Below, in pieces: positions 21,943-29,390 of a stretch of 32,000 bases of DNA. The notes under the pieces were generated by a model. The model was given only the letters and a program-made list of their open reading frames with translations. It had not been told where the DNA came from and ran no database searches. The stretch is from Acholeplasma laidlawii PG-8A. GTDB lineage: Bacteria; Bacillota_I; Bacilli_A; Acholeplasmatales; Acholeplasmataceae. The DNA lies in the NCBI RefSeq assembly GCF_000018785.1, contig NC_010163.1, forward strand, positions 1,350,001 to 1,382,000. Reading direction: 5' to 3'. The position numbers and the translations under genes were made by a program. Position 1 is the first letter of the stretch; each line of letters opens with the position of its first letter.

Positions 21943-22542
21943 TTAATTCTCTTTAACGATGATTTTATTTAAAATCGTCTTAATGTTCAAGAATTCTCCG
22001 ATTGCGCCCCACACAAATCCATTACGTAAATCATTACTTGCTAAACCAAACCCTTCTAAGTCGATTTGGTAGCCATATTTTCTAACAAATAAGTCCATAT
22101 ACACGATTAAAGTTCTTGTATTACCTTCTCTAAGTGGGTGGACCACCCAAAGATCAACTATAAACTTACATAAATGGTCAATAAACTCTGATTTTGTTAC
22201 AAATTTCCATGGATAGCCTTGGTATTTTAAATCTATTTGTTTAAGTTCTTTTTCAATTGTTCTAAAGTCTGCAAATTCAACTAAACCATCACCTAAAATA
22301 AATTCTGAGGTTGTCATATTTACAGTTCTAATTTGTCCAGCCCATGGAAAAACATTCTCAAATAGCAGTTTATGCAACTCTAAAAAATCAAACGCACTCT
22401 CCATTTTTGGTGGATTTTTAAGGATATTTAGCATTGCAAGGCCAAATTGGTTGGCTGTATAGGTCTTTAATAGTGCTTTATCCCTTATACCCATGACATT
22501 TACATGGGTATTAGTGCCTTCATAAAAATATGGATCACTCAT
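21943..22542 (-). CDS. Fic-domain protein, VbhT/FicT-like toxin with a non-canonical Fic motif
   Basis: 199 aa. The N-terminus MSDPYFYEGTNTHVNVMGIRDKALL matches the DPYxYPGT..L.N..GI start of E. coli Fic/VbhT-type proteins. The active-site loop is HPLREGNTRTLI against the canonical HxFx(D/E)GNGRxxR. ATGA start/stop overlap with the upstream gene. Confidence 0.88.
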   Translation of the reverse strand: MSDPYFYEGTNTHVNVMGIRDKALLKTYTANQFGLAMLNILKNPPKMESAFDFLELHKLLFENVFPWAGQIRTVNMTTSEFILGDGLVEFADFRTIEKELKQIDLKYQGYPWKFVTKSEFIDHLCKFIVDLWVVHPLREGNTRTLIVYMDLFVRKYGYQIDLEGFGLASNDLRNGFVWGAIGEFLNIKTILNKIIVKEN

Positions 22543-22862
22543 CGTATTTTCCTACTTAATGCAAAGACTGCAGTATCTAAATCTATTAAGTTCTTAGCAT
22601 AGAGTTTTAAGATGTTATTTGCATAATCACTAGGTATACCTCCACCAAAGGCATTATAAGCTACTGCTTTTTCTAGTTCTTTATATGCTTTCTCGTATTG
22701 AGGTAGTTTTACTTCAAAAGGAATACCTTCTTCTAGTACTACTTGACGTAAAAATATATTGATAGCATCAGAAATTCTTAAATTAAAGTTTTTTAATATC
22801 TCTTCTGCTTTAGTTTTTGTATCTTCATCAATTCTTACATTGATATATTCATTCTTTTTCAT
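22539..22862 (-). CDS. DinJ/RelB-family (ribbon-helix-helix) antitoxin with a roughly 50-aa C-terminal extension
   Basis: MKKNEYINVRIDEDTKTKAEEILKNFNLRISDAINIFLRQVVLEEGIPFEV closely parallels E. coli DinJ (VRARIDEDLKNQA...GLTISD...PF). I place the start at the ATG at 22862, which has an aggtga RBS 5 nt upstream, rather than the ORF-track start at 22889. The predicted -10 would lie inside that longer ORF. Confidence 0.82.
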   Translation of the reverse strand: MKKNEYINVRIDEDTKTKAEEILKNFNLRISDAINIFLRQVVLEEGIPFEVKLPQYEKAYKELEKAVAYNAFGGGIPSDYANNILKLYAKNLIDLDTAVFALSRKIR

Positions 22863-22865
22863 ATT

Positions 22866-22905
22866 ATCACCTAACTCATTGTAACACATTTGTTTTACAA
22901 AATAA
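22866..22905 (-). promoter_or_regulatory. Putative promoter/operator of the antitoxin-Fic pair
   Basis: The minus strand carries an extended -10, TGtTACAAT (plus-strand attgta at 22878-22883). The inverted repeat TTGTAA-N10-TTACAA (22879-22900) overlaps it, as expected for RHH antitoxin autoregulation. Confidence 0.4.
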
Positions 22906-22991
22906 ACTATAAAACATTCTAAAATATTCTTTTATTTCTCATAATATTTAATTAGATATTTCATACACTATTTTTTTATCTAGTTATAATA

Positions 22992-23028
22992 AAAACAAGT
23001 CACCCCTATCTATGGGATGACTTGTTTT
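22992..23028 (-). terminator. Rho-independent terminator after the 166-aa membrane protein gene
   Basis: Stem acaagtcaccc/ggg(a)tgacttgt with loop ctatctat. Flanked by A and T runs, with a T-run on the minus strand. Confidence 0.65.
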
Positions 23029-23047: not shown

Positions 23048-23548
23048 TTATTTTTTATTTTCTACATCGTTTATATTGTTATTCTTATTTTTCTTTTGAA
23101 TATATACATGTGTTGCAGACATTGATATAATTGCAAGTCCGGTGGCTATAAATATTCTAGGATTAATACCGTTTAACACTAACCAATTTGGAATTCTAAT
23201 ACCATCATTATAATATCGATTCGTTGTTATATATCCGAATGTTGAGTTAACAATCGCTAACGTCCCTGAGTCTTCCCCTTCATAACGATACATCGCAAGT
23301 GAAACAGAAGTATATAGTGTTAATTCTTCTATATTATTACTTGTTAATATGATGTACATAGTGCCTTCATTATATAAAGCTTGATGTATCTTTATTTCAG
23401 TTAAATCACCTAGATACTTTTCTAATCTATAAACTGCAGTACTATAATCTCTTTCACTTTTGGTTGGTAAACACATTAATACAAACATTATCATAGTAAA
23501 TATGCCTACAACCCAATATATTTTTTTACGTTCACTTAATACTTTCAT
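23048..23548 (-). CDS. Hypothetical membrane protein (N- and C-terminal TM helices)
   Basis: 166-aa ORF. TM near the N-terminus (IYWVVGIFTMIMFVLMCL) and near the C-terminus (IFIATGLAIISMSATHVYI). Asn/Lys-rich tail. No recognisable motif. Confidence 0.65.
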   Translation of the reverse strand: MKVLSERKKIYWVVGIFTMIMFVLMCLPTKSERDYSTAVYRLEKYLGDLTEIKIHQALYNEGTMYIILTSNNIEELTLYTSVSLAMYRYEGEDSGTLAIVNSTFGYITTNRYYNDGIRIPNWLVLNGINPRIFIATGLAIISMSATHVYIQKKNKNNNINDVENKK

Positions 23549-26115: not shown

Positions 26116-26970
26116 ATGAAAAGAAGACAAATTATTATTTTTAGCATCGTCATTGCATTTAGTATTTTAGTGTTAACACTATCTATTTTATCGCTTGTTT
26201 TTGATGAATATTTAGCATCAACTATTGATGTTATTGGTATTCGTATTGCTGCAATTGTTATTGCATTTGGTTCCTTTGGTTCAAGTACTTTATTTAGTCT
26301 ATTAATCCTTCATCACAATACAACCGTCAGTCAAATTAATGATGACGTCAACAGACGTGCAGAATTATTTAGAGAGTTACAATTTAACTCTAGTAACTAC
26401 TCCATTATTGAATTTATGGACCGCATGTTAATATATAACGAATCAGAAAGATACGTTGAAAGATATGTCCAAAGAAAAGATTATGTATTCCATATGATTG
26501 AACAAAATGCTGATATTGATCATGTTGCATCAAATATTAACGACTATAAATTCTTCTCCTTTAAAATACCATTTAAGGTTGTTGAAGGTAAACTTATATC
26601 TAAAATTACATTTAATCAAATTTACTTTGAAAGACAGGATACAAGATTCTTCTTTGTACCTCCAAAGGGGTATCCATATAGTAGAGCATTCTTGCTATAT
26701 AATGAAACAACCAAACGAAACAACGTCATTATTAACTTGATTGTTAAAAAGGAAAGTGCATTCTTTGTTCCTGAAGAAATTAATGTATTCTCTAAAATTA
26801 AGATGGATATGACAATCGTCAGTTTACTTGGTGTAGGTATTCACGGTTTAAGTGAACTTTACTTTACAAACCCAGTTAAAATTGAAGGCGATCTCACAAA
26901 TACATATAAGATCAACTCTTCAAACTTCATATTAAAAGGTATGCCTTTCTTATCTAAAGAAGAACAATAA
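26116..26970 (+). CDS. Hypothetical protein, two N-terminal TM helices plus a roughly 200-aa domain of unknown function
   Basis: 284-aa ORF with its own TATAAT and gggggt RBS and a strong downstream terminator. No motif I recognise. Confidence 0.7.
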   Translation: MKRRQIIIFSIVIAFSILVLTLSILSLVFDEYLASTIDVIGIRIAAIVIAFGSFGSSTLFSLLILHHNTTVSQINDDVNRRAELFRELQFNSSNYSIIEFMDRMLIYNESERYVERYVQRKDYVFHMIEQNADIDHVASNINDYKFFSFKIPFKVVEGKLISKITFNQIYFERQDTRFFFVPPKGYPYSRAFLLYNETTKRNNVIINLIVKKESAFFVPEEINVFSKIKMDMTIVSLLGVGIHGLSELYFTNPVKIEGDLTNTYKINSSNFILKGMPFLSKEEQ

Positions 26971-27668: not shown

Positions 27669-29390
27669 TTAGTTGAACTTGATGTTATCTATATTGACTG
27701 TACCATAAAGTACTTCTATTTTGATTTGTACATTAGATTTATTGATTGTAGTTTTATAATACACGAAATCTTCTGTTAAGTCAGATATAGTATCTAGTAA
27801 TTCAAAAGTAGATGTTTCATCATTCATATAATAGATGTTGATGACACTTTCAAATGTGAAGTAACCGTTAGATCCAAATAGTCTTGCATCAAAGGATAAC
27901 GTATCTACATGGTCAAATGCGTCCACATTATACATATAGGCACTTTCAGTACTCATATAATGTGTACTAAGTCCTCTAAATCTTGCAACGACATTGCCAT
28001 GTACTTCACTATCCATATATGCAAGTTCTTTTTCACCATGCATATTGAGTGTATGTACTTCTTTCATCATAAAATCAATGTTTCCGATGGTTCTTACTTG
28101 TTCTACATAGTCAAAATCATTTGATGCCGTTTCAAAATCAATCACAACTGGTTCAGATTCTGGTGTATCTCCTGATTTATTAGTTACCCATAAAATATTA
28201 TCAAGCGTTAACCTGTGTCCACTACTTACTTCAATAGAAAGACTGTATGTACCTGTAATGTTTAAATTATCTATACTAAATGTTTTACCTTTATTAGCTT
28301 CGTCATCATCTTTAAATTTAAAGGATTCTATGAGTTCACCATTAATAAATACTTTAATAACTACATTGATTGCTTTATCTTTGCCATTGACTTGTGGGTA
28401 TGTAGATTTAGGTGAAAACGGTAGTCTTGCATCAAAGGATATACTTTGTAAACCATCATGAATTTCTGCTGCATAAATGCGTCCCATACCAGCATCTGTG
28501 TAGATATTACCGAAGCCTCCAATAGTTATGGCATTACCACCTTTTTTCATACCTAAGTCAATACGTGCATTTACCAGCTCCCAAAGTACATAGGTTTCGC
28601 CAATATAATCATAATCCATATACTCACTAGAGTTTTGTCCACTATCTTTAATTGCTTGAAGTGATTCAAAGTTTTCTCTAAGTGTTTCATTAGACTCTAC
28701 AATTATTTTTCCCCAAACCGCTTTAAAGTTTATATCATGAGCTGGCATTGTATCAGGAAGTTGATTGTCCCAACCTATAAATATATAACCTGGTTTTGTA
28801 GGATCTAGTGGTGCATAGATGTTTTCTTCATATGATAGTACTATAGGGTCAATCTCACTACCACCATCTGTATCAAAGGTAATGGTATAAGATGCTTTCG
28901 TCCAGATTGCTTTGACAGTTAAGCCGTTTAACGGCATCGTATCTGGTAATGTAGTATCCCAACCACTAAATATGTAACCTTCTTTGGTAGGTGCATCTAT
29001 TTCAGGTATTACCTCCAAATAAGGAAGCGTTAGTGCATCTATATTACTACCACCATCTGTATCAAACGTAATCTTATAGTTATTTGGTTCCCAAGTTGCC
29101 TTTAAAGTGACATGATGTGCCGGCATGATGGTTGGTACACTTGGTTCCCATCCAATAAAGATGTAGCCATCTTTAGTTGGTGGTGTTAGTTCTAGTTCAA
29201 TTTTGTCTCCTACTTTAAATGTTGCTGTATCAATATTTGATCCCCCATCGGTATCAAACATTAATGTATAACTTAATGGTATTTCTATGTGATCATCTGT
29301 TTGAGTCTTCGTATCACACGCCATTAAAAAAAGCATCATGGTTAGTAGAAAGACACCAAAAATGCTTATTTTAAATTTTTTGTTCATCAT
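27669..29390 (-). CDS. Surface lipoprotein with three Listeria-Bacteroides (Flg_new/InlB B-repeat type) repeats and two paralogous C-terminal domains
   Basis: 573 aa. Lipobox LFLMAC-D. Three repeats of the form FDTDGGS.ID....P.K.GYIF.GW....P.TMP......KA.W. Two roughly 165-aa C-terminal halves each contain (S/L)SFDARL. Confidence 0.85.
   Translation of the reverse strand: MMNKKFKISIFGVFLLTMMLFLMACDTKTQTDDHIEIPLSYTLMFDTDGGSNIDTATFKVGDKIELELTPPTKDGYIFIGWEPSVPTIMPAHHVTLKATWEPNNYKITFDTDGGSNIDALTLPYLEVIPEIDAPTKEGYIFSGWDTTLPDTMPLNGLTVKAIWTKASYTITFDTDGGSEIDPIVLSYEENIYAPLDPTKPGYIFIGWDNQLPDTMPAHDINFKAVWGKIIVESNETLRENFESLQAIKDSGQNSSEYMDYDYIGETYVLWELVNARIDLGMKKGGNAITIGGFGNIYTDAGMGRIYAAEIHDGLQSISFDARLPFSPKSTYPQVNGKDKAINVVIKVFINGELIESFKFKDDDEANKGKTFSIDNLNITGTYSLSIEVSSGHRLTLDNILWVTNKSGDTPESEPVVIDFETASNDFDYVEQVRTIGNIDFMMKEVHTLNMHGEKELAYMDSEVHGNVVARFRGLSTHYMSTESAYMYNVDAFDHVDTLSFDARLFGSNGYFTFESVINIYYMNDETSTFELLDTISDLTEDFVYYKTTINKSNVQIKIEVLYGTVNIDNIKFN
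28710..29270 (-). repeat. Three tandem roughly 63-aa coding repeats (Flg_new-type) inside the lipoprotein gene
   Basis: aa about 41-101, 103-164 and 167-227 share FDTDGGSxID and GYIFxGW motifs. Confidence 0.75.

Follow-up and report, generated by a model that had tools for sequence, protein, structure and literature searches.

A RelB/DinJ-type antitoxin with a putative VbhA-like domain is paired with a GNTR-motif Fic protein in Acholeplasma laidlawii

How might a Fic protein be held in check when neither it nor its partner carries the residues through which such enzymes are normally silenced? Among post-translational modifiers the Fic enzymes form a major family, whose regulation has been explained almost entirely by a single Glu-Arg latch. 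In the three canonical Fic classes, Goepfert et al. (2013) found that an inhibitory Glu blocks the competent conformation of ATP, in which the gamma-phosphate is salt-bridged to the second Arg of the Fic motif, and that in all three classes an E-to-G substitution relieves inhibition, the complex staying intact (PMC3667792). The question is raised by two minus-strand genes in a 32,000-nucleotide stretch of the chromosome of Acholeplasma laidlawii PG-8A (NC_010163.1, positions 1,350,001 to 1,382,000; the window), where a gene for a RelB/DinJ-type antitoxin precedes a fic gene and overlaps it through an ATGA stop/start at 22539-22542, as a first-pass annotation of the same DNA had noted. The antitoxin has Gly at the position of the inhibitory Glu and the Fic protein lacks the second Arg, so that the canonical latch cannot operate in this pair: the extra domain of the antitoxin, which resembles VbhA, either inhibits by another route or is no inhibitor. 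On balance the two genes are probably a chromosomally fixed, autoregulated module of the class I Fic toxin-antitoxin (TA) lineage, in a non-canonical form.

The downstream gene product belongs to the Fic/Doc (Fido) superfamily, matching Pfam Fic (PF02661) with 40.3 bits against a cutoff of 24 (E 6e-10). Its best NCBIfam matches, to PRK10347 Fic and VbhT, both lie under cutoff, and its nearest solved relatives are the class I Fic proteins of PDB entry 8wt0, EcFicT (5jfz) and VbhT (3zcb), with E-values of 1e-13 for the Fic matches in the PDB, which bears out the likeness to FicT/VbhT seen at first pass. The active-site loop, HPLREGNTRTLI, deviates from the canonical AMPylating consensus HxFx(D/E)GNGRxxR by the changes F3L, G8T and R12I; the loop retains His, Glu, Asn and the first Arg, while Thr replaces the second Gly and Ile the second Arg. 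The same loop is present in 12 of 13 close homologues and HPFVEGNTRTII in the remaining one, with H, P, E, G, N, T and the first R fixed throughout.

Among the relatives fetched, GNGR is accompanied by Arg at motif position 12 in 33 of 35 sequences and GNTR by a residue other than Arg in 55 of 55. In a rough neighbour-joining tree the GNTR proteins fall into one near-monophyletic clade, from which the window family branches early. The clade is marked by a seven-residue insertion in the flap (E80...L83), by W132 (three residues before the His, and Asn in canonical proteins), T142 (55/55, against Gly in 35/35 canonical relatives), a residue other than Arg at 146, R173 (54/55; Leu, Met or Ile in canonical proteins) and V177. 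All these clade-specific residues are present in the window protein, which fits the group Hxxx[D/E]GNTRxx[!R] with an identical motif state; F137L, K78T (in the flap) and Y171D are deviations of its own, and its family is a short one (199 aa). Khater & Mohanty (2015) list five motif groups for Fic/Doc proteins, this one, Hxxx[D|E]GNTRxx[!R], among them, and also mention a 'modified inhibitory helix' (PMC4454073). Sprenger et al. (2017) reported that a member of it, Fic2 of Campylobacter fetus (HPFREGNTRTIA), is toxic in Escherichia coli, that toxicity is lost in the H184A variant, and that Fic2 lowers 70S ribosome levels, the chemistry being left open (PMC5651007). The motif state, for which novelty had been claimed at first pass, has thus been in print since 2015, and a toxic member since 2017. 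A sequence search found no solved structure of any GNTR Fic protein, and the searchable literature yielded no later biochemical study of one.

It could be argued that these changes are cosmetic, and that the protein is an ordinary FicT-type AMPylase, acting for example on GyrB/ParE, in which the backbone amide is preserved with Thr, a different basic residue, R173 for instance, stands in for the second Arg, and the antitoxin blocks the site sterically. Such an enzyme would be expected to find its best sequence matches in EcFicT, VbhT and the Fic protein of 8wt0, as is the case, and the intact His, Glu, Asn and first Arg and the clade-specific Arg at 173 would suit it well. However, T142, non-Arg146, W132 and the flap insertion are fixed as a set throughout a near-monophyletic clade, which argues for a changed active site rather than drift. 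Moreover, ATP needs the second Arg to bind in its competent mode (PMC3667792); Doc, which also replaces the motif Gly and lacks the Arg (motif groups in PMC4454073), differs in chemistry; and it was ribosomes that C. fetus Fic2 affected (PMC5651007). An unmodified AMPylase is accordingly regarded as unlikely.

The N-terminal half of the upstream protein matches Pfam RelB (PF04221) over aa 4-59 with 54.9 bits (E 9e-15) and NCBIfam TIGR02384 (RelB_DinJ) with 71.5 bits (E 5e-20), both over cutoff; DinJ is its top match by fold and is also found by sequence in the PDB. As described at first pass, this ribbon-helix-helix (RHH) domain is followed by an extra C-terminal part, a three-helix extension of some 53 aa. 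Direct searches with the extension (53-55 aa) recovered little: in Pfam there was nothing at E up to 10, VbhA (PF18495) included; in the PDB there were only spurious matches of leucine-rich repeat (LRR) kinases to 'YNxFxGxIPS'; and phmmer against 1.84 billion representatives returned only its own cluster. Later comparisons of profile with profile indicate that divergence and shortness, not lack of homology, lie behind these failures. When the RHH-fused extensions were aligned by hhalign with the VbhA-like partners of GNTR Fic genes, the probability was 96% (E 3e-9, 50 columns), with a score of 43.9 against a maximum of 11.7 in column-shuffled controls. The GNTR-partner set aligned in its turn with the canonical VbhA set, which bears SxxxEG, at 95% (E 2e-8), and the RHH-fused extensions with that canonical set at 24% (E 8e-4), the register being the same. 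An unanchored comparison of 84 full-length fusion proteins with untrimmed partners gave 91% (E 1e-6) and placed aa 57-107 of the window antitoxin on the VbhA domain. The small partners of canonical and of GNTR Fic genes both match Pfam VbhA above the gathering score, and one RHH-fused relative (L011, in the numbering of loci used here) matches it weakly (E 0.019, 15.4 bits against a cutoff of 25.9).

Structure prediction points the same way. An AlphaFold2 (AF2) model from an alignment of 84 sequences (mean predicted local distance difference test, pLDDT, 82.6), which replaced an earlier one from 11 sequences (pLDDT 65), shows three helices, at 54-72, 79-89 and 95-106, after the RHH domain, the first of them ending at GGG. 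A Foldseek search of the PDB with this model gave 18 matches in total: DinJ and RelB for the N-terminal half and, for the C-terminal half, BiaA (5eu0_B, probability 1.00 and target TM-score, TMt, 0.63; 5nh2_B) and VbhA (3zcb_B, TMt 0.66). Profiles and model together support the view that the extension is a diverged domain of the VbhA/FicA/BiaA type and no DinJ-type toxin-binding tail, as the first-pass annotation had surmised from a resemblance in spacing. In the hhalign register the hexapeptide YNAFGG stands where SxxxEG would, with Tyr69 at the Ser/Thr position and Gly73 at that of the inhibitory Glu; a regular-expression search for [ST]xxxE[GN] agrees with the earlier reading by eye that neither window protein contains this motif. 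Across 121 fusion proteins the Glu position is occupied by Gly in 90, Asp in 30, Ala in one and Glu in none, while the Asn three residues before it (Asn70 in the window) is present in 120 and the Gly after it in all 121.

The pair sits beside VbhT/VbhA, FicT/FicA and Bep/BiaA, with which it shares a small upstream gene overlapping a fic gene of about 200 codons, the N-terminus and fold family of the Fic protein, and the three-helix antitoxin fold in the same register; by homology, a domain of the VbhA/FicA type would be supplied in trans by a separate upstream gene, as in class I. It differs from them in the N-terminal RHH domain of the antitoxin, in the replacement of the inhibitory Ser and Glu by Tyr and Gly, and, in the Fic protein, in having Thr and Ile where the second Gly and the second Arg would be, and a seven-residue insertion in the flap.

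How the Glu and the Arg came to be missing can be judged from the partners of other Fic genes, for which genomes were scanned with a Fic alignment (at least 80 loci; the best match listed had 35% identity), close relatives of the window pair being taken from contigs encoding homologues. Canonical genes, with HPFREGNGRxxR, have small open reading frames (ORFs) with SxxxE(G/N) upstream of them. Genes with HPFREGNTRxx[non-R] are associated with similar small upstream ORFs or C-terminal domains in which the hexapeptide reads xNxIEG, xxxVDG or xNxLGG, and YNAFGG in the window. The first-pass proposal that both halves of the latch were lost together does not survive this comparison in its strict form: loss of the Arg and the G-to-T change are fixed clade-wide (55/55), whereas the partners carry E, D or G, and E- and D-bearing partners are paired with non-Arg Fic proteins. 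Loss of the Arg must then be older, and loss of the Glu a later event in one sub-branch, mainly that with RHH fusions. N-terminal domains other than RHH, DNA-binding or unassigned, also precede VbhA-like C-termini in proteins encoded upstream of GNTR Fic genes (L018:3575-3976; upstream ORFs in L005, L007, L008, L013 and L015; L009:3111-3989). Among them are an Xre-type HTH_3 domain, a domain of about 120 aa that Pfam does not recognise, in proteins about 175 aa long, and a 292-aa protein.

The RHH-VbhA-like architecture is itself widespread. A profile search with RHH domain and extension found at least 120 clusters of proteins of 105-110 aa in which the whole query is covered, all annotated only as RelB/DinJ, and a metagenome scan added 80 further loci. 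In each of the 48 metagenome loci where the downstream partner could be read, it is a Fic protein with GNTR and a residue other than Arg at position 12, and the two genes usually overlap by 1-8 nt; the same pairing is seen in L001, L002, L011, L085 and L086. Antitoxin hexapeptide and Fic loop also go together by sub-branch: YN[AS]FGG with HPLREGNTRTLI, INLTGG with HPFREGNTRT[VLI][SA], IN[ST]VDG with HCFREGNTR, and IIEST[GA]G with H[SA]FREGNTRVV. The last of these sub-branches, IIEST[G/A/D]G (antitoxins of L136, L147, L149 and L153-L168), has Glu instead of the Asn that lies three residues ahead of the canonical Glu position; this Glu may be a repositioned acidic residue. A minority of loci have orphan antitoxins or broken Fic genes. 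Orphan RHH-VbhA-like genes with no Fic gene downstream occur at L083:2501-2830 and in L117, L118, L121-L124, L133, L134 and L145; the Fic genes of L086 and L140 are split or broken, that of L086 adjoining a group II intron reverse transcriptase. The searchable literature contained no paper on such fusions, and fusions of RHH and VbhA-like domains that have Gly or Asp instead of the Glu appear to be undescribed and are systematically mis-annotated. Of the novelty claimed at first pass for this architecture, the lack of a published description therefore stands, and its singularity does not; with the motif class known and the architecture widespread, the novelty is smaller than was claimed.

These data bear directly on the possibility that the extension is after all an ordinary DinJ/RelB tail for a toxin of the RelE/YafQ type, the Fic protein being a chance neighbour or a decaying pseudo-enzyme. 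The database annotation of family members as RelB/DinJ only, and the fact that Pfam detects only RelB in the window antitoxin, would lead one to expect just this, and the N-terminal RHH domain does match those of DinJ-YafQ and RelBE in sequence and fold. But the C-terminal half differs from theirs in matching VbhA-like profiles and the folds of BiaA and VbhA, and the partner is no RNase of the RelE family: the great majority of loci with room for a downstream gene have a Fic gene there, and none has RelE/YafQ. Nor is either gene decaying. At a dS of about 1.0-1.3, the ratio of non-synonymous to synonymous substitution rates (dN/dS) is 0.11-0.20 for the Fic gene and 0.06-0.08 for the antitoxin gene, the extension taken by itself having 0.05-0.08; purifying selection acts strongly on both genes, and the catalytic residues are invariant. 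This possibility is very improbable indeed.

The arrangement of the control region would suit an autoregulated operon. An extended -10 element, TGTTACAAT, overlaps the palindrome GTAAAACA-AA-TGTGTTAC, and in a comparison of four related genomes conservation within the intergenic region is confined to the surroundings of GTAA(A/C)ACAAATGTGTTACAAT and the Shine-Dalgarno (SD) sequence. The conserved block is an 8+2+8 palindrome overlapping the extended -10, and is perfect, GTAACACAAATGTGTTAC, in two of the four (L081 and L087), so that the overlapping inverted repeat reported at first pass is borne out. A generic scan for promoters and terminators did not flag this promoter, the number of scan matches in the region being no higher than in shuffled sequences; the scan being uninformative, support for promoter and operator comes from conservation between species. 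It is plausible that the palindrome is an operator for the RHH domain, which, to judge from the sequence, would bind there. A strong terminator parts the module from the upstream gene and so insulates it, and a weak hairpin with a U-run lies 3' of the Fic gene.

The start of the antitoxin gene bears on the same region. From its first ATG the ORF would span 22539-22889, with an alternative ATG at 22862 that begins MKKNEY and gives 107 aa. The latter is almost certainly the true start on sequence grounds, since the SD sequence AGGTGA lies 4 nt upstream of it and the longer ORF would begin within the promoter; several homologues are likewise 107 aa long. Homologue entries P0021-P0024 and P0030 (protein numbering used here) are annotated with an N-terminal 'MCYN...GD' extension, equivalent to 22863-22889 in the window. 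These N-termini are the product of calling an ATG that lies inside the conserved promoter/operator, ATGTGTTACAAT, and conservation across this interval is at the level of DNA, not protein.

The module lies between genes for arginine decarboxylase and agmatinase and the pdhABCD operon, and occupies the same position in Acholeplasma granularum, whose Fic protein is 79% identical, and in two relatives from metagenomes, at 67% and 57%. No signs of a defence island were seen within the window; the neighbours are core metabolic genes, with no mobile-element genes nearby. An origin in a phage or other mobile element was considered and set aside, viral contigs having given matches to the RHH part only and no full-length module, and the neighbours being what they are. 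The Fic protein does match the PADLOC defence-candidate family PDC-S04 (E 9e-41), and in this resembles SoFic, the Fic-based anti-phage system; it differs from such systems in its context and in its absence, as a full-length module, from viral contigs, and SoFic itself has a canonical motif in the papers found.

So settled a position invites the suggestion that this is no TA system, but a complex of the two proteins, stable and serving some housekeeping or regulatory enzymatic function, to which the VbhA-like domain belongs as an obligate subunit and not as an inhibitor; the 'E-to-G' state would then denote a constitutively active complex. The site between agmatinase and pdhA is kept down to 57% Fic identity among core metabolic neighbours and away from mobile-element genes, the antitoxin is more conserved than the toxin, and E-to-G complexes of canonical Fic proteins are active (PMC3667792). 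Yet an operon of overlapping genes with an RHH autorepressor is the layout of a type II TA system, the orphan antitoxins and broken Fic ORFs among relatives are typical of TA turnover, the contexts of the module in other taxa are varied, the Fic protein matches the defence-candidate family PDC-S04, and C. fetus Fic2 is toxic (PMC5651007). A housekeeping complex is for these reasons considered improbable.

For the TA module that is preferred here, the following mechanism may be proposed. The RelB/DinJ RHH domain most likely represses the operon at the palindrome overlapping the -10 element, while the three-helix domain of VbhA type most likely lies wrapped around the Fic core in the manner of VbhA and BiaA. 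Inhibition is probably independent of a Glu. Neutralisation would most likely be steric, the helix that ends in the GGG turn occluding the donor or the target site, with the near-invariant Asn70 a candidate for contact with the active site; the type II operon layout and the TA-like turnover of related modules favour such Glu-independent steric neutralisation. The Fic protein retains the catalytic His, the Glu that binds metal, the Asn and the Arg that contacts the beta-phosphate, but the gamma-phosphate Arg is missing and the anion nest contains Thr. The enzyme would most likely still transfer a phosphoryl-containing group from a nucleotide, though probably not by canonical AMPylation, an altered mode of donor binding being favoured by active-site changes that are fixed clade-wide and parallel those in Doc. 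The target may lie in the translation apparatus, by analogy with C. fetus Fic2, the only tested member of the GNTR clade.

Several points weigh against this reading. The homology of the extension is established transitively, through comparisons of profiles, with no direct match in Pfam VbhA, in the PDB or outside its own cluster; the window family alone reaches an hhalign probability of 12%, and Foldseek retrieves BiaA and VbhA with weak E-values, from 0.12 to 9. How the two proteins would bind, and that inhibition would be steric, is projected from homologous complexes only. C. fetus Fic2 is a long-form protein distant from that of the window; canonical binding of ATP might be restored by R173 or some other residue; and it is unusual for a TA module to have been inherited vertically over such depth next to genes of core metabolism. 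In its widest form, the proposal would be that RHH-VbhA antitoxins with Gly or Asp at the Glu position and their GNTR Fic partners make up a large unannotated lineage that dispenses with the Glu-Arg latch, uses a non-canonical mode of donor binding (for example for Doc-like transfer of a phosphoryl or other nucleotide-derived group) and is neutralised via the invariant Asn and the Gly-Gly turn; this is put forward tentatively, as somewhat likelier to prove wrong in some part than right in all.

Doc/Phd offers a parallel for such a departure in chemistry. Doc has kinase activity. Phd joins an N-terminal DNA-binding domain to a C-terminal segment that neutralises the toxin, and autoregulates; the window antitoxin would, by analogy, likewise combine DNA binding at its N-terminus with neutralisation at its C-terminus. 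Doc is also a toxin of the Fic fold in which the second motif Gly is replaced and the last Arg absent (PMC4454073). The two systems differ in that Doc has Lys where the window protein has Thr, so that the Doc motif HxFx(D/N)(A/G)NKR is not matched by GNTR; the match to TIGR01550 (DOC_P1) is weak (13.9 bits against a cutoff of 38.65, E 0.046); and Phd is no RHH-VbhA protein. Kinase chemistry of the Doc type may be suggested for the window Fic protein by analogy.

C. fetus Fic2 differs from the window protein in being a long form and in having been reported to be neutralised by another Fic protein, whereas the partner in the window is VbhA-like, is fused to an RHH domain and has Gly in place of the Glu; the window family for its part is a short, early-branching one with Leu for the motif Phe, Thr for K78 and Asp for Y171. 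Other long GNTR Fic proteins (264-400 aa) are encoded at L020:3689-4783, L025:2885-3967, L056:3794-4597 and about 20 other loci, in Bacteroidales, Streptococcus pneumoniae/mitis/suis, Akkermansia and others. They carry in cis an N-terminal domain, 'W..AIGLQ.VD[GN]LKPS.YL', that is VbhA-like by hhalign (97.9%, E 6e-13), Pfam detecting no VbhA in these N-termini, and the streptococcal proteins also have TAFFEN at the C-terminus. The L020 gene is flanked by large ORFs taken, by eye alone, for type I restriction-modification genes. An ORF of 327 aa (P0017, L169:2032-3015), directly after parE, joins in frame the N-terminal 245 aa of ParC, subunit A of topoisomerase IV, to the last 82 aa of a close homologue of the window Fic protein, including HPLREGNTRTLI; as it was found only on one 3.8-kb metagenome contig, it is probably an assembly chimera or a rearrangement.

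The wider interest of the module lies in the control of Fic enzymes. The whole GNTR clade lacks the Arg, and its commonest trans partners in Bacillota and Mollicutes are naturally in the E-to-G state that de-represses canonical Fic proteins in experiments, so that at least 120 protein clusters provide a defined and abundant test case for control without the latch, and for the reaction of the GNTR active site, a question since 2015-2017. Hundreds of database entries for a 'RelB/DinJ antitoxin' would by the same token be Fic antitoxins, which matters for the annotation of TA and defence systems. The features of the locus are collected in Table 1.

Table 1. Features of the antitoxin-Fic module and its surroundings, in window coordinates
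Feature	Position	Strand	Description and evidence
Fic toxin gene, GNTR motif clade	21943..22542	-	199 aa; ORF; Pfam Fic E 6e-10; PADLOC PDC-S04 E 9e-41; all GNTR clade signature residues tested
Fic active-site loop HPLREGNTRTLI, aa 135-146	22105..22140	-	Read from the sequence; alignment of close homologues
Antitoxin gene	22539..22862	-	107 aa plus stop; stop overlaps Fic start (ATGA); start from SD and 107-aa homologues P0025, P0026, P0028
Diverged VbhA/FicA/BiaA-like three-helix domain (supported), antitoxin aa 54-107	22542..22703	-	hhalign; predicted AF2 helices; Foldseek BiaA/VbhA
YNAFGG hexapeptide, antitoxin aa 69-74	22641..22658	-	hhalign registers; tally of 121 fusion proteins
RelB/DinJ RHH DNA-binding domain, antitoxin aa 1-53	22704..22862	-	Pfam RelB E 9e-15; TIGR02384 E 5e-20; DinJ in PDB by sequence and fold
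Shine-Dalgarno AGGTGA for antitoxin start at 22862	22867..22872	-	GGTGAT invariant across genome comparison
Extended -10 element TGTTACAAT	22878..22886	-	Invariant in four genomes
Putative operator, palindrome GTAAAACA-AA-TGTGTTAC overlapping -10	22881..22898	-	Conserved block in four genomes; RHH binding predicted
Intrinsic terminator of upstream gene	22991..23028	-	RNA fold -22.6 kcal/mol, z -6.6, then U-run

Between the agmatinase gene and the module, the window encodes on the minus strand (23048-23548) a predicted membrane protein of 166 aa without a Pfam match, whose gene is followed by the terminator in Table 1 and which is absent from this position in three syntenic relatives (L081, L082 and L087). 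Two further genes of the window are unrelated to the module: one on the minus strand (27672-29390) for a protein of 573 aa with Listeria-Bacteroides repeat (Flg_new) domains, and an ORF of 284 aa (26116-26970) without a Pfam match.

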